This document shows, piece after piece, positions 7,854-55,494 of a stretch of 64,000 nt of DNA (within the stretch, counting starts at the first letter, position 1; the number at the start of each line of letters is the position of its first letter). Origin of the DNA: Candidatus Kaiserbacteria bacterium (GTDB lineage: Bacteria; Patescibacteriota; Minisyncoccia; Phycocordibacterales; UBA2100); NCBI GenBank assembly GCA_016186695.1, contig JACPLC010000005.1, forward strand, positions 64,852 through 128,851, in the 5' to 3' direction. The translations under genes and the position numbers were made by a program. The notes beneath the pieces were generated by a model, which was given only the letters and a program-made list of their open reading frames with translations, ran no database searches and had not been told where the DNA came from.

Positions 7854-8432
7854 TTAGTACCACGATCCTGTCCATGGGTCGTACAACCACTGGTGCGGGT
7901 CCGAGACGTAGGTCGGATAACATCCGTATCCCGAATAGCAATAGTCGTATCCGTAAGAGTAGTAGGGATCATACGAGTATGTCGGGTACGACCAATAGTC
8001 GTAATAGTACGTTGGCTGGTACGAGTAGGTTTGATACGAGCACGGCGTATACGACCAGTAGTATCCGCACCAGTACTGTTGATTTGAGTATGATGGATAT
8101 GAATACGAATATGTTGGAGAGGAATACGACGGGTAGCTAGATGAATACGAGGGCGCATTCACGTTCACGTAGGGAGATGTGTTGATATAGGTGTACGGTG
8201 AAAAGTTGTGGTATGTGTAGTTCGAGCTCGTGCACGGACTATAGGAGTAGTACGTTCCACACCAGTACATCTGCGGCATCTGGTAGCTGGAATACGAATA
8301 GTTGTTGGGATACGTGTTGGAATACGAATAGTTGTTGGGATAGGAGGAATAATAGTACTGCGCGTATGCCGGAAACGGAGAGACAAGTGCGAGTGCCCCG
8401 AGCACAATAGTGGAAGCAAGGAACCTCTTCAT
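7854..8432 (-). CDS. Secreted Tyr/Ser/Asn-rich low-complexity protein with two YWCG-x-Y-x-SY-x-PC modules.
   Basis: Signal peptide MKRFLASTIVLGALALVSPFPAYA. The mature part is about 40% Tyr. There is an internal 24-nt direct repeat (8289..8312 and 8319..8342). Confidence 0.55.
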   Translation of the reverse strand: MKRFLASTIVLGALALVSPFPAYAQYYYSSYPNNYSYSNTYPNNYSYSSYQMPQMYWCGTYYSYSPCTSSNYTYHNFSPYTYINTSPYVNVNAPSYSSSYPSYSSPTYSYSYPSYSNQQYWCGYYWSYTPCSYQTYSYQPTYYYDYWSYPTYSYDPYYSYGYDYCYSGYGCYPTYVSDPHQWLYDPWTGSWY

Positions 8433-9756: not shown

Positions 9757-12162
9757 TCAACGCGTTCGGCCGAGACGCTTCTCCACCTTCGCGACAGCGA
9801 TCGTCGTCTTGATGACAGAGTCGGGATTCAGCGACATACTCTCTATCCCCTGCTCAACGAGGAACTTTGCAAATTCAGGATGGTCGGAGGGCGCCTGCCC
9901 GCAGATACCGACATACTTTTTCCTTTTGCGGCAGACCTTAATGACCTCGGCGATGAATTTTTTGACTGCCGGATCATTTTCGTCAGCAACACGATTCACG
10001 ATGCCGGAGTCGCGATCGAGACCGAGTGTAAGTTGTGTCAAGTCGTTCGAGCCAATAGACATGCCGTCGAACATATCGAGAAATTCGTCCGCAAGAATGA
10101 CGTTCGAGGGAATTTCGCACATGACAATGACCGGCGTTTTGTGGCCGGAGGCAGGTTGTCCCGGCAGAAGATTCGGATGAAGACCGGCTTCCTCCATCGT
10201 GATGAGCACCTTGCGCCCCTCTTCGAGCGTGCGGCAAAATGGTACCATCGGTATTGCGTTCATGAGACCCATCTCCTCCCGCACCTTGAGAAGCGCCTCG
10301 CACTCGAGTTCGAACGCTTCCTTGAACTTCGGATCGTAGTAGCGCGAAGCGCCGCGCCAGCCGAGCATCGGATTTTCCTCGTGCGGCTCGAAATGTTCGC
10401 CGCCGAGGAGTGAGCGATACTCGTTGCTTTTAAAATCGGAGAAACGAACGATGACCTGCTTCGGGTAAAATGCGGTCGCAATCTTTGCGATGCCATAGGC
10501 GAGATTGTCCACGTAAAAACGTTTCTTATCACTCCATCCATGTACGCGCTCATCTATTTTTCTCTGAAGCGTCTTGTCGAGTCGCTTGTAATTAATGAGC
10601 GCAAGCGGGTGCACGCCGACCGAAGAGGCAATGATGAATTCCTCGCGCGCAAGCCCGACGCCTTCGTGCGGAAGGAACGATTTTTCGAATGCCGTGTCCG
10701 GTGTTGCAAGGTTCATGGAAATCTTCGTTCTCGTCTTCGGGATCTTCCGTATATCACTCTCTCGGACATCGAAACGGAGTGCACCCCTGAAAATGACACC
10801 CTCGGCGGAGGTTGTGTCTACGGTGATGACAGTCCCCGTTTTGATGCGTTTCGTCACACTCCCCGCGCCGACAACCGCGGTCAAGCCCAGCTCGCGCGAG
10901 ACGATCGCCGCATGCGAGGTGCGGCCGCCCTTGTCAGTCACGATAGCCGCTGCCTTTTTCATCACCGGCTCCCAATCAGGATCGGTCATTTCGGTGATGA
11001 GTATCTCGCCCCGCTCCAGTTTCTCCATGTCGCGCACACTTTCGATAACGCGCGCTTTCCCGACTACTATCTTTGAGCCGACCGAAAGTCCTTTACCGAT
11101 GATGGTGCCGTTGTCGCGCCGAATGTACTCCTTTATCTTTGAGCGATCCCTGGAAACCTGCACCGTTTCCGGTCTTGCCTGCAGAATAAAAAGCTCGTGG
11201 GTCCTCCCGTCGAGTCCCCACTCAATGTCCATCGGCGTCGGTTTCCCTCTTTTTTTGGAATAGTGCTCTTCTATTTCTTTCGCCCACGTCGCAAGCACCA
11301 GTATCTCTTTGTTCGTGATGGAGAAACGCTCACGGTCCGCCTTTGGGGTCTTCTCGACCTTTACCGGCCTTCCATTCTCTCGTGCTGCGTATACCATTTT
11401 CACCTCCTTGCTGCCAAGACGCCTTCCGATGATGGGAAGCGGTGCGCGACCGAGCATTTTCTTCGCGACAAGAAATTCATCGGGCACCACCTTACCCTGC
11501 ACGATCATCTCCCCGAGGCCGTAGGAGCTGGTGACGAGTATGACGTCGGGAAAACCGCTTTCGGTATCGATCGTAAAAATGACGCCGGAGGCGCCAAGGT
11601 CACTTCTCACCATCCGCTGTACGCCGACCGAAAGCGCGATTTCGTGCTTGTCGTAGCCCTTGTCGATGCGATATGAGATCGCGCGGCCGGTAAAGAGCGA
11701 CGCAAAACAGGCACGAATTGCCTTTAGAATGTCTTTCTCACCGCGAACACCGAGGTAGGTATCGTGTTCGCCGGCAAAGCTCGCGTCCGGCATGTCTTCA
11801 GCCGTCGCCGAAGAGCGCACCGCGACATCGATATTTGTCCCGTACTTTTCCTCCATATCGCGATACGCGTGGATGATCTGCGTTTCGAGCACCGCAGGAA
11901 ACGTCGCGTTCGTTATCTTTTTCCGGATCGCCACACCGACTTCTTCAAAGTGCTTTACGTCTCTCTTTTTCAAACTGCGGAGTTGGGATTTGATGAACTT
12001 CTCGAGTCCGGCTTCGCGCAAAAACAGCCGGTAGCCTTCTGCCGTCACGATAAATCCAGAAGGAACACGAATACCCTTGCTTCCAAGCTCGCGGAGCATT
12101 TCGCCAAGACTCGCATTCTTTCCGCCAACGAGCGCAACGTCGTTCATTCCCGCCTTTTCCAT
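9757..12162 (-). CDS. ppsA: Phosphoenolpyruvate synthase (pyruvate, water dikinase).
   Basis: Matches PpsA: N-terminus GMNDVALVGGKNASLGEM, VRSSATAEDMPDASFAG, GGRTSHAAIVSRELGLTAVVG, and a C-terminal PEP-utilising TIM barrel. Starts at the internal ATG (MEKAG). Confidence 0.92.
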   Translation of the reverse strand: MEKAGMNDVALVGGKNASLGEMLRELGSKGIRVPSGFIVTAEGYRLFLREAGLEKFIKSQLRSLKKRDVKHFEEVGVAIRKKITNATFPAVLETQIIHAYRDMEEKYGTNIDVAVRSSATAEDMPDASFAGEHDTYLGVRGEKDILKAIRACFASLFTGRAISYRIDKGYDKHEIALSVGVQRMVRSDLGASGVIFTIDTESGFPDVILVTSSYGLGEMIVQGKVVPDEFLVAKKMLGRAPLPIIGRRLGSKEVKMVYAARENGRPVKVEKTPKADRERFSITNKEILVLATWAKEIEEHYSKKRGKPTPMDIEWGLDGRTHELFILQARPETVQVSRDRSKIKEYIRRDNGTIIGKGLSVGSKIVVGKARVIESVRDMEKLERGEILITEMTDPDWEPVMKKAAAIVTDKGGRTSHAAIVSRELGLTAVVGAGSVTKRIKTGTVITVDTTSAEGVIFRGALRFDVRESDIRKIPKTRTKISMNLATPDTAFEKSFLPHEGVGLAREEFIIASSVGVHPLALINYKRLDKTLQRKIDERVHGWSDKKRFYVDNLAYGIAKIATAFYPKQVIVRFSDFKSNEYRSLLGGEHFEPHEENPMLGWRGASRYYDPKFKEAFELECEALLKVREEMGLMNAIPMVPFCRTLEEGRKVLITMEEAGLHPNLLPGQPASGHKTPVIVMCEIPSNVILADEFLDMFDGMSIGSNDLTQLTLGLDRDSGIVNRVADENDPAVKKFIAEVIKVCRKRKKYVGICGQAPSDHPEFAKFLVEQGIESMSLNPDSVIKTTIAVAKVEKRLGRTR

Positions 12163-12302
12163 TCCGATGACGAGGGCCTTGCCCGTCCGAAGCCTTGCGC
12201 GAAGGAGGGCGTGGCGGTGCGCGGGACTTTTTGGCTGTGTGCGGCTACGTCCCGCTCGCATGATGGCGGCAGTATACCCGAATAACGACTACTAGCAACC
12301 TG

Positions 12303-42619: not shown

Positions 42620-42656
42620 ATGGGGTTTGCTGTTTATAACAAGATTGTTCAAAAAG

Positions 42657-42679
42657 AAAATAGGTGGTACACCTATTTT
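42657..42679 (+). terminator. Perfect 10-bp hairpin downstream of the HAD gene.
   Basis: AAAATAGGTG-GTA-CACCTATTTT. Confidence 0.35.
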
Positions 42680-42723
42680 GGTGAAAGCACGGTGCTCTCA
42701 TCCACGAACACGGGAGACTCTCC

Positions 42724-43077
42724 ATGGGTAGAGCAGGCCACGGACGAAGGGCGTTCAAGACGCCCGCAGGCCGCGCGCACGATGCGCGAGACGCGCTTAT
42801 AGGGACGCTCGGCAGACTGAAAGAAGAGCTTGAAAAGGGACATGAGGTTGCGGCGACGCAATTTCAGAACGAACTTCTCTCAGTCTTCGCGACGGCCGAG
42901 TCGGTTCGAACGTTCGGCATGCCAGTACAAAAATGTCAGAACCTTCTCAAGCGCGATCCGAGCAAATACGAGGTGCTCGAACACCTCGTGATGAAGAAGT
43001 TGCACTCCGGTTCGGGGCCAACCGTCATCTTCGGAATCCTGCGCTGGAAGGCGCGCGAGCTCGGTGTTCCGATCTGA
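42724..43077 (+). CDS. Hypothetical protein.
   Basis: 117-aa ORF followed immediately by a strong terminator. The true start is uncertain. Confidence 0.35.
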   Translation: MGRAGHGRRAFKTPAGRAHDARDALIGTLGRLKEELEKGHEVAATQFQNELLSVFATAESVRTFGMPVQKCQNLLKRDPSKYEVLEHLVMKKLHSGSGPTVIFGILRWKARELGVPI

Positions 43078-43108
43078 CGCCAAAATACGCCATCACGCTT
43101 GCTCTTGT

Positions 43109-43136
43109 GGCCGCCCCTCAAGGCGGCCGCTTTTTT
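43109..43136 (+). terminator. Rho-independent terminator.
   Basis: GGCCGCC-CCTCAA-GGCGGCC followed by GCTTTTTTG. Confidence 0.65.
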
Positions 43137-43208
43137 GCCGATTTGACCCCGCAAAACACGTACGTCTTGGTCCCTCATGGCGGCAAGGTCTCGCCTTGCC
43201 ATTCCTCT

Positions 43209-43613
43209 CTAGCGGATGCGAACCGAGCTTGAATTGATGTTGGAGTGGTAAGAGATGTAGGTGCCACCGCCACTGCCTCCCTGCCCACCCACCACGCCGC
43301 CATTTGCGCCGTTCCCTCCTCCTCCAGAAATCGAACCCCCCGCGCCGCCCGCAGCTCCGGCTGCTCCCGGCGCCTGCATCCAGACGGAACCTCCAGAGTT
43401 TGAGTAGCCGCTACCGTAATTTGAATAGCCGAAGTATGACGCATATGTCGGAACAGAGAAGAACTGCACTTGAGGAGCGTATGGCAATGCCCAATAGGGG
43501 TACGCATACGCACGCGGCACGGAAACGGCAGCATACGCGATGAACGCACTTGCCACGGCAATGCCGAGAGAAACTGTCACTACCCTATTTCGCTGAACTG
43601 GTGTCGAACTCAT
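43209..43613 (-). CDS. Secreted Gly-rich protein; a member of the C-terminal-module family (ends ...NINSSSVRIR).
   Basis: Signal/TM segment, an aromatic YxY segment, then GAAGAAGGAGGSISGGGGNGANGGVVGGQGGSGGG and the C-terminal motif. Confidence 0.6.
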   Translation of the reverse strand: MSSTPVQRNRVVTVSLGIAVASAFIAYAAVSVPRAYAYPYWALPYAPQVQFFSVPTYASYFGYSNYGSGYSNSGGSVWMQAPGAAGAAGGAGGSISGGGGNGANGGVVGGQGGSGGGTYISYHSNINSSSVRIR

Positions 43614-43630
43614 ATAAGTGATTAACGATA

Positions 43631-43663
43631 AATAAAAAAGCGACGCCTTCCGAAGAAGTGTCG
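43631..43663 (-). terminator. Intrinsic terminator/attenuator hairpin inside the 5' leader of gene 43209..43613.
   Basis: Minus strand AGCGAC-(15 nt)-GTCGCT followed by TTTTTTATTTAT; about 20 nt upstream of the ATG. Confidence 0.45.
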
Positions 43664-43688
43664 CTGCCTACTAATAATTATGATGTAT

Positions 43689-43736
43689 TGCAACATCGTG
43701 CGTGCTCACTTCGCCGTTTCCCGAAGCCAAGCAGAC
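43689..43736 (-). promoter_or_regulatory. Conserved 48-nt leader element, copy A.
   Basis: Minus strand GTGTCTGCTTGGCTTCGGGAAACGGCGAAGTGAGCACGCACGATGTTG. About 85% identical to the copy at 46642..46690. Confidence 0.5.
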
Positions 43737-43876
43737 ACGACTCTATTTTACGCCTGCGCCCGAGCGATGACTATTGACACCAAGAGCACGCTGTTTGCTA
43801 GAGAACTAGAGAATCAGCGGATTGGCCGGGATGGCGCGATACTCGTGGCAGACCGCTAAACATCGCAATGCCTCAA

Positions 43877-43905
43877 GGCCGCCACCTCGGCGGCCTTTTT
43901 GTTTG
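43877..43905 (+). terminator. Orphan Rho-independent terminator (a paralog of the one at 43109) with no annotated upstream plus-strand gene.
   Basis: GGCCGCC-ACCTC-GGCGGCC followed by TTTTTGTTTG. Confidence 0.55.
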
Positions 43906-43945
43906 TCATTTTGACCCGCCAGAGTCTATATAGTAGAGTGCCCAC

Positions 43946-44257
43946 GTGAATCAGTGGATACAAGATAATTGGCTTAAAGTCTTAGCGATTCTCTTTGCGC
44001 TTGGTGCCTTGGCGCCCGTCCCCTATTTTGCCTACTACCAGATGATGAATTGGATCGTCGTTGGCGCAGCGCTCACCACCGCATGGCAAGCATATAAACA
44101 GAAGAACAATTGGCTTTTGTGGCTGTTTATACTCGTTGCTGTCATTTTCAATCCTATCGCTCCTCTCTACTTTTCGGCAGACATATGGCGCATCGCTGAT
44201 ATCGTCGCGGCAATTCTCTTCATAATTTCGTTTTTCATACTTAAGCCAACGAAGTAA
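43946..44257 (+). CDS. Small membrane protein (3 TM).
   Basis: GTG start; hydrophobic throughout. Confidence 0.35.
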   Translation: MNQWIQDNWLKVLAILFALGALAPVPYFAYYQMMNWIVVGAALTTAWQAYKQKNNWLLWLFILVAVIFNPIAPLYFSADIWRIADIVAAILFIISFFILKPTK

Positions 44258-44312
44258 GTGCTGTCAAAACAAAAGAGCCCTTCGCGGGCTCTTTTGTTTT
44301 TACTAATAATGT

Positions 44313-46502
44313 TTAGTCCGCTATGTATTCCCACACTGCATCGATGAACGTGTCTGCGTTCTCGGTCGGTGCCGACCACGCCAGCTTGAACCCGTACGGG
44401 CTTCCACCTGTACCCGGCACGATCGAGTAGCCGTTGACGAGAGCAATGTTGTCGCTGCTCTCTGCTGAGTAATAGATACAGACAACGCCCGCAGCGGAGG
44501 AACCGAGACCGGGACACAACGCCAAGTCAGCAGCTGACTCTTCCGAGTTCGGACCTGCGGCAATCACCTCGGCGTCGGTCAGATCTTTGTTGGCCGGAAT
44601 CTGGAGAGTCATGATCGTCCCGAAGTCTTGCCCGAATTCGCTTCCGGGAGGCAGCGGACCGGCGTGGGCATCCAGCCCGATACCGCCACGGATCGTCTCG
44701 CCTGACACGAGTGGCGTCAGCGCAGAGCGTCCAGCAGGACCGGGCGCACCTGTTGCACCCGTTGCCCCAGTTGGGCCAGCCGGACCAGTCTCGCCTTGGA
44801 CTCCTTGGATACCCTGTGCGCCAGTCGCTCCCGTTGCACCTTGCGGACCCGGGTCGCCCTGCACTCCCTGTGGTCCTTGTGCACCAGTCGCACCTTGAGG
44901 ACCTATTGGGCCTTGCGGACCTCGACAGTCGAGAGCATTAATCACCGAATCACCATTTACGTCTTCTGTGGAGAAGTCTTGAACTCCGTTGCCGTTGAGA
45001 TCCCAACAACTTAGCCCAGTAGGACCTTGGAGTCCTTGCGGACCCGTGAGGCCGGTTGGCCCGGTAGGGCCTGCCGGACCAGCAGGACCAGTTGCGCCCT
45101 GCGGACCTTCGGGGCCTGCCGGACCAGTTGGACCAGTATCACCCGTCGCGCCTGTTGGACCGATTGGTCCTGTGGGGCCTGCCGGACCAGCAGGACCAGT
45201 GTCTCCTTGTGCGCCTACAGCTCCTGTTTCTCCTTGCGCACCAGTTGCACCGGTTGCTCCTGTTTCTCCTTGCGCACCAGTTGCACCGGTCGCACCAGTC
45301 AACCCGACTGGACCTTGCGGACCCTCCGGACCTGCTGGACCGGTTGGGCCTTCTGGACCAGCTGGACCCATTGGACCAGTCTCGCCTGCCGGACCCGCGG
45401 GACCCATCGGACCATCGGCACCTTGTGGGCCTGCGGGACCTGTCTCACCAGTCAAGCCGATTGGGCCTTGAGGACCTGTTGGGCCAATCGCGCCTGTCTC
45501 GCCTGCTGGTCCTTGTGGACCCACCTCACCCTGCGGACCTGCAGGACCTTGTGGACCCTGAGCACCTTCAGCTCCAGGCTCTCCGGCTGCACCTTCGGCA
45601 CCCGGCGCACCTTCTGCTCCTGGTGCGCCATCACAAACGTAGCTCGTGGAAGTTATTTCTTCAGCGTCCAGTACGGCGTTGTTGTTTGCATCAATACCAG
45701 ACTCTACTTTTTGCCCACCAGCTGCGCAGTTCTCTCCTGCCGGCTCACTAGTCACAACAACCAATGCCTCCGAACCGTCTTCGCCATCTGTTCCATCTGT
45801 GCCGTTGACACCATCCGCGCCATCAACCCCATCACAGATATAACTTGTCGTAACCGGGCCTTCGCCCACGCTCGTTTCAACTTTCTTTCCACCTGCAAGG
45901 CAGTTCTCGCTCAGAGCGGGTTCGTCGGTCACGACAACGTTTGCAGATTCTCCGTCGGCACCTGCCGGACCTTGGGAGCCAACGTCACCCGGCGGACCTT
46001 GTGCACCATCTTCTCCGTCAGCACCCGCAGGACCAGTCGGACCTGGGTCACCCTGCGGACCCTGTTCACCCTGAGGCCCTTGTGTGCCGTCCTCACCATC
46101 GGCGCCGGAAGGACCCTGCGCGCCATCTTCTCCGTCAGCTCCCGTCGACCCAGTTGGCCCCGGATCACCTTGCGGACCTTGTGGGCCGGTTTCTCCTTGT
46201 GAGCCGGTTGCACCGGGCTCTCCCTGCGGACCCTGTTCTCCCTGAGGGCCTTGCGGACCTTGTTCTCCTCGAGGACCCTGAACGGATCTCCCGATCGATG
46301 CATTGACACCCCCTTCTCCTTCACCGCAGTTGAACCTGCTGAATGGCGAGCTGGTTGCATTACTGCCTATGCAAAAATCCAAGCGAAGTTGTGCATACGC
46401 TCTCGGAACAGAAACTCCGGCAAACAACATCAAACCAAACGCACTCGCGATCGTCAGCAAGACCAATTTCCTTTCCCTCACCACATGTAGAACACTGTTC
46501 AT
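44313..46502 (-). CDS. Secreted collagen-like (Gly-X-Y triple-helix repeat) protein with interspersed Cys-containing modules and a C-terminal globular domain.
   Basis: More than 150 GXY triplets ([14 protein letters not shown]...). Two roughly 40-aa non-collagen modules ([20 protein letters not shown]...YICDG). TTG start with an alternative ATG two codons upstream. Confidence 0.8.
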
Positions 46503-46560
46503 ACCATTATAGTAGTTACTAATTTCTTGTAATCGCTAATAAACGGCCGACCAAAACTAC

Positions 46561-46599
46561 CCAAAAGAAAAAACTGCTTTGCGCCTACACGCAAAACAG
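46561..46599 (-). terminator. Intrinsic terminator/attenuator in the leader of the collagen-like gene.
   Basis: Minus strand CTGTTTTGCG-TGTAGG-CGCAAAGCAG followed by TTTTTTCTTTTGGG; about 60-100 nt upstream of the start. Confidence 0.5.
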
Positions 46600-46641
46600 T
46601 CCATCTTTGTGATGAATAACTCCCGAACCGCGTTTTCGGTT

Positions 46642-46690
46642 CCAACATCATGCGTGCTTCCTTCACCGTTTCCCGAAGTCAAGCAGGCAC
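46642..46690 (-). promoter_or_regulatory. Conserved 48-nt leader element, copy B.
   Basis: Minus strand GTGCCTGCTTGACTTCGGGAAACGGTGAAGGAAGCACGCATGATGTTGG. Confidence 0.5.
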
Positions 46691-46826
46691 ATAACAATCG
46701 TATACCTCAGGAGAGCGGCCTGTAGATTTAGTTCTGTGGAAAAGTCAGAAATCCCAGGAAAAATCTGTGTGCATCGCTGGGGAAACCGTGGGGACAACGC
46801 TGGGGACAGTTCCAAGACACAACATA

Positions 46827-46848
46827 CCAACATTCTTGAGAATGTTGG
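46827..46848. promoter_or_regulatory. 22-bp palindrome (candidate operator) immediately upstream of TATAAT and the ArsR-like gene.
   Basis: CCAACATTCT-TG-AGAATGTTGG, then TATAAT at 46851..46856. Confidence 0.55.
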
Positions 46849-46863
46849 TATATAATGGCGTGC

Positions 46864-47154
46864 ATGGCAACAAGTAAATTGAAGAGCTCGAGGCAACTTG
46901 AACGGCATCTTAAGGGCGTTGCTAACCATTGGCGAATCGATATATTGCTCACTATCGCCGCCAGCCCAGGCATTACCCTCGAAGCTATCGCCGACCACCT
47001 TGAGGGCAACGTGAAAACGATCTCGGAGCACACGAGGCGACTCGCGCAAGCGGGTTTAATTGATAAGAAATACGAAGGCCGGACCGTCACGCACGTCCTT
47101 TCACCCTACGGAAAGATATTCAGACAATTCCTCGTAACATTCCAACATTCTTGA
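46864..47154 (+). CDS. ArsR/SmtB-family winged-helix transcriptional regulator.
   Basis: RIDILLTIAASPGITLEAIADHLEGNVKTISEHTRRLAQAGLIDKKYEGRTVTHVL. Starts at the ATG at 46864; the track's ATG at 46855 lies inside the TATAAT box. Confidence 0.6.
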   Translation: MATSKLKSSRQLERHLKGVANHWRIDILLTIAASPGITLEAIADHLEGNVKTISEHTRRLAQAGLIDKKYEGRTVTHVLSPYGKIFRQFLVTFQHS

Positions 47155-47163
47155 GAATGTTGG
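47142..47163. promoter_or_regulatory. Second identical 22-bp palindrome, overlapping the ArsR stop codon.
   Basis: Same 22-mer within the extended palindrome ACATTCCAACATTCTTGAGAATGTTGGAATGT. Confidence 0.5.
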
Positions 47164-54157: not shown

Positions 54158-55258
54158 TCAAGAAAAGCTGATCGGGAGAGGCTCCGGTCTTCGCAAGAAC
54201 AGGTAGAGATACATGAAGCCGAGAAGTGCCGAAGTAAAGGAGAATACGAGGAGTCCCAGAGCATCCGCCCCGCCGGCTCCTGCGTTTGGAACTCCCGGCT
54301 CGCCTTGCGGTCCTCCCATAAAATCCGGTATAGGGGTGACCGCGCCGGCAACTTGGCCGGAGGGCGCTCCACCGCTCGAACCTCCACTCGAGCCGCCCGA
54401 ACTGCTTCCACCCGAACTGCCACCACTCGGCCCTCCTCCACTCGAGCCGCCCGATGGCCCTCCGCCGGTAGATCCGCCGCTCGGCCCACCGCCAGACGGC
54501 CCGCCTCCGCTATCGCCTCCCTGCCCGCCGGGACCCTCATCGTCATTAATAATGGTGCAGGTTTTAATGTCGCCCGCGGTGAGCGTAACGCGCCCCGAGG
54601 AATCGCAATCGCCGCTAAATTCCGGTACGTACTTCTGCGTTGTAGTTCCGACAGTCACACTCGTCGTTGCTTCCGAAACAATATACGTACCCGCAAGAAA
54701 TGTCCTCTGTACACCGGATTGGACGGTCGTCGAGCCGACGCGAAGCGTGAAGTCGGTCGTCGTTGCGCTCCCCTTGTCGTCGTTGATGACGATTTTAATG
54801 AGCGTGAGTTTGGGCGAGCCGGGCGGAGGCGGGCCATTCGGGCACGCCGGTACGTCGAATTGCGGTATCGGCTCGCCCGCGCTATTGAGAAGCGGAAAAA
54901 CAATGCAGTATTTTATTTGAGAGCCGAGGTCCGCTCCGGGCGTGGAAGGAGCGGCTGCAGTAGAGGGAGCGGAGGGAGAAGAAGGAGAATCGGGGGTTGC
55001 GGGGTCCCGCGTTGCTCCGATATCGGGAAACTGCACCGTCGGAGAATTTGGAGCCTCCGGCTTTGCAGGTATCGTCGGAAGGGCCGGAATCGTCATCGCG
55101 GGCAAAACGCGGGCGCTCTCTCTCGTTTCGTCACGAGATGCCCGCTCCGGCGAACGGTCGGTGTCAGAGTATGCAAACGTCGCGAGCAGCCAGAAAAACT
55201 GCGTGAGAACGAAAAGACTTATGAGGAGTAGGTTACGAAATGTGGTCGTGGTCGCCAT
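54158..55258 (-). CDS. Secreted protein with a Pro-rich region, a Gly/Ser linker (GGPSGGGPSGGSTGG...) and a C-terminal hydrophobic anchor followed by RRPE.
   Basis: Signal peptide MATTTTFRNLLLISLFVLTQFFWLLATFAYS. C-terminus ALGLLVFSFTSALLGFMYLYLFLRRPEPLPISFS. Confidence 0.55.
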   Translation of the reverse strand: MATTTTFRNLLLISLFVLTQFFWLLATFAYSDTDRSPERASRDETRESARVLPAMTIPALPTIPAKPEAPNSPTVQFPDIGATRDPATPDSPSSPSAPSTAAAPSTPGADLGSQIKYCIVFPLLNSAGEPIPQFDVPACPNGPPPPGSPKLTLIKIVINDDKGSATTTDFTLRVGSTTVQSGVQRTFLAGTYIVSEATTSVTVGTTTQKYVPEFSGDCDSSGRVTLTAGDIKTCTIINDDEGPGGQGGDSGGGPSGGGPSGGSTGGGPSGGSSGGGPSGGSSGGSSSGGSSGGSSGGAPSGQVAGAVTPIPDFMGGPQGEPGVPNAGAGGADALGLLVFSFTSALLGFMYLYLFLRRPEPLPISFS

Positions 55259-55494
55259 GCGCACGCCCCACCCCATAGTTTCCCGATACGAAGCAGCGCA
55301 GAAACATTGTAGATGGCCAAAATTAAGGACTCATGAACGAAAAACCTGATAATAGGGGGAAAGTCGGTAGGTAACCCTGTGCACAACCGGGGTACAGCTA
55401 TGTGCATAACCGGAAATCTCCAACAAATCAAACAAAAATCGCGACAGTGTGTTTCCGAGGAATCTTCCGCGAGCCTGTATCCCAATCAAAGCGA

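Follow-up and report, generated by a model that had tools for sequence, protein, structure and literature searches.

In a 64,000-nt stretch of a Candidatus Kaiserbacteria bacterium genome (assembly GCA_016186695.1, contig JACPLC010000005.1, positions 64,852 to 128,851; the whole stretch is called the window here), two copies of a conserved leader motif were found on the minus strand, upstream of two secreted-protein genes. With a confidence slightly better than even, we read the motif as the 5' module of a lineage-specific cis-acting leader RNA, i.e., a transcription attenuator, placed before extracellular structural protein genes in Kaiserbacteria and neighbouring Parcubacteria. Control by premature termination in cis is inferred because the leader is structured, strand-specific and located at the predicted +1, its targets are coherent, intrinsic terminators follow it, and the glycine-rich (Gly-rich) gene behind the first copy has no plausible separate promoter. 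Read-through is possibly driven by a short leader open reading frame (ORF). The element is a candidate for a new cis-regulatory RNA family of a familiar kind (leader/attenuator), and no related description of it was found in the literature.

The preliminary description had proposed two minus-strand copies of about 85% identity, one before the Gly-rich gene 43209..43613 and the other before a collagen-like gene. Both the copies and their placement were confirmed (ORFs 43209-43613 and 44313-46502). The 44-nt core lies at 43691-43734 (-) and 46643-46686 (-), which were the only two matches of an exact IUPAC search, with 0 expected in shuffles. In ungapped comparison, the cores are identical at 39/44 positions and the 49-nt module is approximately 86% identical. 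The similarity starts abruptly at GTG(T/C)C and ends just after GATGTTG, and the identity in the 150 nt flanking each copy on either side is at random level. The covariance model R1 gave 67 bits each for 43690-43738 (-) and 46642-46690 (-), with no further R1 match above 15 bits in the whole window and no extra copies by R1 or R2. The minimum-free-energy folds of the two whole leaders had z-scores of -3.3 and -3.5.

The module is composed of two hairpins. P1 is a 41-nt hairpin with three helical segments, i.e., GUGY/GCAY, UGYUU/RAGCA, and CUUCG/YGAAG, divided by small internal loops, and its apical loop is 8 nt in the window copies. The local hairpin CUUCG-GGAAACGG-YGAAG described before does exist, but it is merely the tip of P1. 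P2 follows directly 3' of P1, and its GAUGU pairs with ACAUC and encloses an AUG. A -10-like hexamer (TAAAAT in leader 1, TACGAT in leader 2) ends 6 nt before the first G of P1. This spacing between the predicted -10 box and the first paired G was seen in most leaders, those of the relatives described below included, and 10/11 leaders have a TANNNT box 3-9 nt upstream of GUG, where the background is 4.5%. Because the -10-like box ends about 6 nt before its first G, P1 is predicted to begin at about +1 of the transcript; the start site itself is a prediction. The parts of the module in the window are as follows.

43745..43773, minus strand: promoter-like site of leader 1, TAGTCA-17-TAAAAT, with the -10 box at 43750-43745, ending 6 nt before P1.
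43698..43738, minus strand: P1 of leader 1, GUGU.CUGCUU..GCUUCG[GGAAACGG]CGAAGU.GAGCA.GCAC, a 41-nt 5'-terminal hairpin of three segments.
43682..43697, minus strand: P2 of leader 1, GAUGU-UGCAAU-ACAUC, a small hairpin around the invariant AUG (43696-43694).
46697..46702, minus strand: TACGAT, the -10-like box of leader 2, ending 6 nt ahead of the first P1 G.
46650..46690, minus strand: P1 of leader 2, GUGC.CUGCUU..CUUCG[GGAAACGG]UGAAG.AAGCA.GCAU.
46611..46649, minus strand: P2 of leader 2, in which an inserted hairpin, GAACCG-AAAACG-CGGUUC, is closed by GAUG...CAUC, with the invariant AUG at 46648-46646.

Three other identities of the motif were tried and rejected. An extracytoplasmic function (ECF) sigma promoter, with GGAAAC as -35 and CGAT as -10, does not fit the relatives, which have GAUGCGG in place of GGGAAACGG. 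A mimic of domain IV of the signal recognition particle (SRP) RNA was suggested by the shared GAAGGAAGCA. However, no SRP model matched, the AGCA forms Watson-Crick pairs with UGCU, and the loop measures 6-8 nt. The reading of GAAGGAAG as a Shine-Dalgarno sequence failed on variable positions in the would-be core and on a genome that does not use Shine-Dalgarno sequences.

In both window copies, a GC hairpin and U-run between the motif and the start codon had been proposed, and a stable GC-containing stem-loop with an adjoining U-tract was indeed found in each. The terminator scan placed the second one at a stem of 46602-46571 followed by TTTCTTTTGG. The terminators, the genes behind them, and a second promoter-like site are located as follows.

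43631..43668, minus strand: intrinsic terminator of leader 1, GCGAC.CUUC-UUCG-GAAG..GUCGC (stem about 43664-43640), then UUUUUUAUUU.
46561..46602, minus strand: intrinsic terminator of leader 2, a 14-bp stem, then UUUUUUCUUUU; it is a member of a covarying hairpin family, P4.
43209..43613, minus strand: Gly-rich signal-peptide gene, 134 aa, an ORFan without a Shine-Dalgarno sequence and without a convincing promoter of its own.
44313..46502, minus strand: collagen-like secreted protein gene, 729 aa, with Pfam Collagen repeats and DUF7151; an orthologue with the same leader is found in the related contig L041.
46506..46533, minus strand: a further site resembling a promoter, ATTACA-16-TATAAT, located past terminator 2 and ahead of the collagen-like gene, with 3 nt from the end of its -10 to the ATG.

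The GC content of the window is 55%, and among the upstream regions of 30 confident genes almost no Shine-Dalgarno sequences were found. Throughout the window, -10-like boxes (TATACT/TAAAAT-like) often stand 6-12 nt before start codons, e.g., upstream of 1205, 9757-12261, 18469, 19060, and 7854-8432. Judged from these sequence features, most mRNAs of this Kaiserbacteria genome are probably leaderless or nearly so. Because most mRNAs look leaderless, genes with leaders of more than 100 nt are exceptional.

The same features allow another explanation, that each copy is an independent small RNA (sRNA) gene. In this case a stable sRNA of 105-150 nt, acting in trans, would be transcribed from the promoter and would consist of the 5' hairpin, P2, a single-stranded linker and the terminator, and the protein genes would have their own proximal promoters. 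The -10 box and strong terminator of the copies, the hairpins at both ends, which are typical of stable sRNAs, and the apparent leaderless genes with promoters abutting the ATG are in line with it. The 10/12 promoter match between terminator 2 and the collagen-like gene also fits, especially for copy 2. However, 12/12 leaders examined, in the window and in relatives, are co-oriented with a secreted-protein gene and directly upstream of it (in L044, the gene lies beyond the contig end). No credible promoter was found between terminator 1 and the Gly-rich gene, and by eye none was seen before the TasA-type genes of the related contigs L001 and L037. Moreover, the TasA-type leaders have conserved blocks past P4 (GUCGUGAGCG, GGUCGA) and weak U-tracts. 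The sRNA explanation is regarded as unlikely.

A search of related genomes, a check named in the preliminary description, gave further copies in related Kaiserbacteria contigs. The first pattern searched in the genome collections, GGGAAACGGNGAAGNNAGCACGCA, gave 0 matches because the loop is not conserved. With a pattern of the 3' strand, searched in genome species representatives and metagenome collections, the real matches were only a Kaiserbacteria metagenome-assembled genome (MAG), L012, and a JGI contig, L018, and the rest were chance matches; scans of viral_contigs gave nothing real. In contigs fetched via neighbouring or downstream proteins, R1 scored 26-77 bits, and the further variants were L001 (syntenic), L023-25, L037/L038 (a syntenic NCBI MAG), L041/43/45, and L042/44. 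The P1-P2 module was thereby seen in six further sequence variants of relatives, i.e., L001, L012, L023, L037, L041, and L044. The comparison with Rfam asked for earlier was negative. Rfam 15 gave 0 matches at gathering thresholds in the whole window, and at a permissive threshold (E<=10) nothing was found on the motif or terminators beyond spurious microRNA or leader-terminator matches, as was also the case in L038 and L035.

In all leaders examined, the module is co-oriented with and adjoins a secreted-protein gene. In L041 it precedes the orthologue of the collagen-like gene of the window. In L001, L012, L023, and L037 it precedes a three-gene operon encoding TasA/camelysin-like proteins with SipW-type signal peptides and a SipW-like peptidase, and L044 has the same TasA-type leader with the downstream gene beyond the contig end. 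For the Gly-rich protein, homologues were sought for orthologous leaders, and the sole match among 5.8 billion proteins was itself. The module is also common to unrelated target genes within one genome, i.e., the Gly-rich and collagen-like genes.

The gene order around the leaders was compared as well. The slot between the HAD hydrolase and the CAP/winged helix-turn-helix (wHTH) genes holds the TasA/SipW three-gene operon in L001, L023, and L037. In the window the same slot (42620-46850) is taken up by the Gly-rich and collagen-like genes and a DUF6804 gene, and no TasA-type operon was found in the window. The leader module was kept ahead of these new genes.

More distant Parcubacteria, L027, L031, L036, and L029, keep the layout upstream of TasA-like genes, i.e., -10 box, 5' hairpin, AUG hairpin, and long hairpin. 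The P1 sequences of these contigs differ and are simpler than the Kaiser-type. The 5' hairpin begins GUGUC...CAC in L027, L031, and L036, and in L029 it is short and begins GAACG; in L027 and L031, P1 is reduced to a plain 6-8 bp hairpin. On the sequences compared, P1 appears limited so far to Kaiserbacteria-like genomes, and the wider Parcubacteria family would be defined by P4 and the overall layout.

The TasA-type leaders have conserved blocks after the long hairpin, CUCUUUGUCGUGAGCG and then GGUCGA about 20-30 nt further on. These blocks were located at L001 5500-5660 (-), L023 785-900, L027 1255-1360, L031 3855-3960, and L044 1-90 (-). The GCUCUUU core of the first block is similar to the boxA antitermination element, but here it is paired within the hairpin.

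The structure was assessed on a sample of about six P1 variants and four more distant leaders, which represent few independent lineages. RNAalifold on eight whole leaders recovered P1, P2, P3, and P4 independently. Covariation, a check named in the preliminary description, was present in the terminator-like hairpin P4 but not in P1. P4, which includes terminator 2 of the window, has 18 consensus pairs, 10/18 of them with compensatory double changes, and 0/500 shuffles attained the observed values in any measure. For P1, eight distinct Kaiser-type sequences were used. Its cells were paired at 96%, compared with <=72% when the partner strand was slid to other registers. In P1, 8/13 pairs vary, on one side only and always by G.U-compatible transitions, with 0 two-sided changes; in L037 an extra C-G pair is inserted in the apical stem.

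In 11/11 leaders, P1 folds more stably as the sense strand than as the antisense strand because each P1 holds 1-3 G.U pairs. This argues for an RNA of the sense strand and not for a DNA palindrome. The strand difference bears on the idea that the motif is a DNA operator for a transcription factor, e.g., the adjacent wHTH regulator, overlapping +1 to +48 of the promoter. As an operator would suggest, the -10 box is closely followed by an imperfect inverted repeat, P1, and copy 2, like the copies in L001, L041, and L042, stands divergent to a wHTH gene. However, only on the sense strand is all the variation compatible with G.U pairing, and in 11/11 the antisense strand folds less stably. Copy 1, L012, and L037 have no adjacent wHTH gene, and the wHTH loci L003-L009, L039, and L112 have no motif. 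The wHTH gene also carries its own conserved 22-bp palindrome, which is unrelated to P1. With the motif occurring without wHTH, wHTH without the motif, arms that differ by G.T 'wobbles', and a separate palindrome, the wHTH operator was rejected, and an operator of any kind is considered highly improbable.

The wHTH gene is an observation in its own right. This 99-aa gene (ArsR/MarR-like) at 46855-47154 (+) is bracketed by identical perfect 22-bp palindromes CCAACATTCTTGAGAATGTTGG at 46827-46848 and 47142-47163, one 7 nt before the ATG and the other over the stop codon. The palindrome pair also flanks the wHTH homologues in L001, L039-L045, L112, and L113, despite differing neighbour genes. From its sequence, the gene with its palindromes looks like a self-contained cassette, either a repressor that regulates itself through two operators or a small mobile unit.

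Conservation within the module is uneven. The 3' strand and tail of P1-P2 are nearly invariant, and the 5' strand drifts through wobble changes. Such a pattern could come from a protein-dependent antitermination site, in which P1/P2 and the invariant AGCAC-NNNC-GAUGUUG would serve to bring in a factor that binds RNA (N/nut-, LoaP- or EAR-like) and makes the polymerase read through P4. The sharing of the module by unrelated target genes in one genome is also in favour, and the lack of structural interaction with the terminator fits a factor acting on the polymerase. However, no candidate factor was identified, and the P1 sequence is not kept in the distant relatives that retain P4. We consider an antitermination site quite unlikely. 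The boxA/boxB elements of lambda nut, HK022 put, EAR, and LoaP leader hairpins are processive antitermination sites. The leaders here are like them in a conserved hairpin and linear element early in the leader, terminators downstream, and surface or secreted targets. They differ in that neither sequence nor Rfam similarity was seen, that no NusG paralogue or other associated factor was found, and that the targets include single short genes besides operons.

The motif had been put forward as a riboswitch or attenuator. The attenuator part was supported in that a sense-strand leader RNA with a terminator is conserved in relatives. The riboswitch part was not, with variable loops and no terminator competition. 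In a metabolite riboswitch, P1-P2 would be the aptamer and the terminator the expression platform. A conserved structured leader with a terminator and the sharing of one leader by several different genes are features of this arrangement. However, the P1 apical loop differs among copies (GGAAACGG, AUGCGG, AUGCGAG, CCGAUGC), the internal loops vary too, and thus no conserved unpaired core was found. P1 is a simple hairpin without junction or pseudoknot, there is no Rfam match, and the targets are structural proteins, not transporters or enzymes. When the P1 5' strand was constrained to stay unpaired during folding, 8/8 leaders still formed the same terminator hairpin. Given the variable P1 loops and the lack of competition between P1 and the terminator, a metabolite riboswitch is very unlikely.

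Two long-range pairings were also discarded. For an antiterminator between the P1 3' strand and the terminator, the 6-7 bp matches found by hand differ between copies, and the constrained folding kept the terminator in 8/8. A pseudoknot between the loop and downstream sequence of copy 2, AAACGG:CCGUUU, was by eye not conserved in copy 1 or L041.

For the attenuator that we favour, the trigger was sought in the AUG enclosed by P2. AUG(Y)UG is invariant in 11/11 leaders, and the twelfth leader, L029, has AUGAUG in the equivalent P2. The ORF from the invariant AUG (14-49 codons) reaches or crosses the terminator hairpin P4 in 11/11; in L044 the stop is a few nt before P4, inside what would be a ribosome footprint. 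The predicted ORFs are thus short ones that would let a ribosome cover the terminator, as in coupling attenuators. The two in the window are as follows.

43622..43696, minus strand: putative leader ORF 1, 24 codons, MLQYIIIISRQRHFFGRRRFFIYR; it crosses the terminator, and its stop is 8 nt before the Gly-rich ATG.
46499..46648, minus strand: putative leader ORF 2, 49 codons; it runs across the terminator and ends in a stop that shares AUGA (46502-46499) with the collagen-like ATG.

A leader ORF of this kind was also met in annotation. In L026, the 40-aa leader ORF at 488-610 of the L018/L023-type leader was called as a gene by the JGI annotation. Protein databases may contain such leader ORFs, either as spurious entries or as real small proteins.

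The proposed mechanism would run as follows. Transcription would start at the G of GUGYC, about 6 nt after the -10 box, and the first 41 nt would fold as the 5'-terminal hairpin P1, followed by P2 with the invariant AUG. At 30-60 nt further, P4, a very stable hairpin with a U-tract, would end most transcripts ahead of the gene. P1 may protect or mark the 5' end. Read-through would be set by a trans-acting input and not by a metabolite. The most likely input would be ribosomes starting at the invariant AUG and translating the short non-conserved leader ORF into or through the terminator, and a ribosome in this position would keep the terminator hairpin from forming. In the window copies, the leader ORF would also bring ribosomes to the main start codon without a Shine-Dalgarno sequence, i.e., by translational hand-over. 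A ribosome trigger is inferred because the AUG is invariant, the ORF reaches the terminator, and it ends at or near a main ATG that has no Shine-Dalgarno sequence.

Known systems with comparable leaders were considered. In E. coli pyrBI, according to reviews by Turnbough and Switzer, read-through is set by how transcription is coupled to the translation of a leader ORF that runs through the terminator. The leaders here are alike in that a short leader ORF runs through an intrinsic terminator just before a structural gene, an antiterminator hairpin is unneeded, and the peptide sequence is irrelevant. Unlike pyrBI, no UTP (uridine triphosphate)-sensitive U-rich pause region was identified, the organism is Shine-Dalgarno-less, P1 and the AUG-enclosing P2 precede the ORF, and the targets are secreted structural proteins. 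The trp, his, leu, and thr attenuators also combine a leader ORF with a terminator, and by eye the TasA-type leaders have candidate 1:2, 2:3, and 3:4 pairings, i.e., AGAGC..GCUCU, GCUCUCG..CGARGAGC, and P4. Unlike these attenuators, there are no conserved regulatory codons (an IIII run occurs in copy 1 only) and the window copies have no regions 1 and 2. The Rfam Thr/Trp/Phe leader models matched only unrelated terminators, at E > 1.

The ompA, aprE, ermC, and cryIIIA STAB-SD elements are 5'-terminal stabiliser stem-loops of abundant mRNAs, which have no terminator after them and are not a shared module between unrelated genes. P1 would resemble them in a hairpin within about 1 nt of the predicted +1 and in mRNAs for abundant exported proteins. 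It differs in the terminator that follows and in the module being common to unrelated genes. In Mycobacterium tuberculosis, which has many leaderless mRNAs, one study (PMC11260477) ties the translation of upstream ORFs (uORFs) to the expression of the downstream gene, and the leaders described there hold B12 riboswitches. In comparison with those uORF-coupled leaders, the same uORF logic is proposed here, and no aptamer is evident here.

Several observations weigh against a translated leader ORF and an attenuator. The leader peptides are unrelated past ML, with frameshifts between relatives, and regulatory codons are not conserved. The remaining two frames are also stop-poor and nearly as open, so that the openness of the leader ORF is just weakly significant. 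The AUG is base-paired in the P2 stem right behind the GC-rich P1, which is a poor initiation context, and the TasA-type leader ORFs end more than 60 nt before the gene. The structure of P1 rests on wobble-only variation among close relatives; compensatory covariation is absent among the eight Kaiser-type sequences, and the shuffle control was non-significant (307/500). In the TasA-type leaders, the U-tract is weak (CUCUUUGUCGUG) and P4 extends to a rod of about 30 bp flanked by GCUCUCGA/UCGUGAGC. This P4 may be a structural, processing or protein-binding hairpin rather than a terminator. Lastly, because a consensus-like promoter (10/12 match) precedes the collagen-like gene after terminator 2, expression of this gene may be independent of read-through.

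A weaker, partial third copy had been proposed upstream of the secreted-protein gene 54158..55258. The similarity held for the 5' half, and there is no full copy.

55259..55300, minus strand: possible degenerate third P1, whose 5' half at 55278-55296 matches at 16/19; the ATG is at 55258.

The 5' half, CTGCTTCGTATCGGGAAAC at 55278-55296 (-), matches at 16/19 where 0.04 such matches are expected. Over the full 44-mer there are 18 mismatches, i.e., the background level, and R1 gives no match. A 3' half, P2, and terminator are all missing from the half-copy, and shuffled sequences fold just as well (z = +0.16). It stands 9 nt after a TACAAT box, which was noted as the same distance from the box as for P1. 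Its weak G.U-rich hairpin, of similar layout, ends right at the ATG (55258) of a SpaA_2-domain secreted-protein gene (54158-55258). The half-copy may be a minimal or decayed form of the module.

A more speculative extension, which we hold to be rather unlikely, is that P1 and the AUG form an 'entry module' for extracellular structural protein mRNAs. The hairpin would present the AUG, a throw-away ORF would suppress the terminator and hand the ribosomes over, and the half-copy at 55259-55300 would be the minimal form. If this is true, the expression of matrix or fibre proteins would depend on translational capacity or on a factor that opens P1/P2.

Besides the leader module, the two window genes share the end of the signal peptide. 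VSVPRAYA is common to the Gly-rich and collagen-like proteins, and its codons differ at several synonymous sites, which indicates that both genes are truly coding. A shared leader module and signal-peptide cleavage region, together with a Gly-rich gene that is an ORFan, could mean that the motif is a non-functional remnant of a duplicated 5' gene end. However, the stretch between the module and the signal peptide is fully diverged while the 49-nt module is approximately 86% identical, and the module is conserved across several species before non-homologous genes. We consider a remnant the least probable of the explanations.

The interest of the attenuator proposed here comes from the organism, i.e., an uncultured, Shine-Dalgarno-less member of the Candidate Phyla Radiation (CPR), and from the target genes, not from a new principle. 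To our knowledge, no regulatory RNA from the CPR has been experimentally characterised, and a literature search for one found none. The CPR bacteria are uncultured and have tiny genomes with few recognisable regulators. The leader would be a candidate for entry in RNA family databases as a cis-regulatory element. It would also be a test case for translation and attenuation of long-leader genes in a genome without Shine-Dalgarno sequences. The TasA-like, collagen-like, and Gly-rich extracellular proteins probably mediate host or surface attachment. The leader would offer a defined sequence through which the control of TasA-like fibres, collagen-like proteins, and small Gly-rich proteins in Kaiserbacteria and Parcubacteria can be approached.

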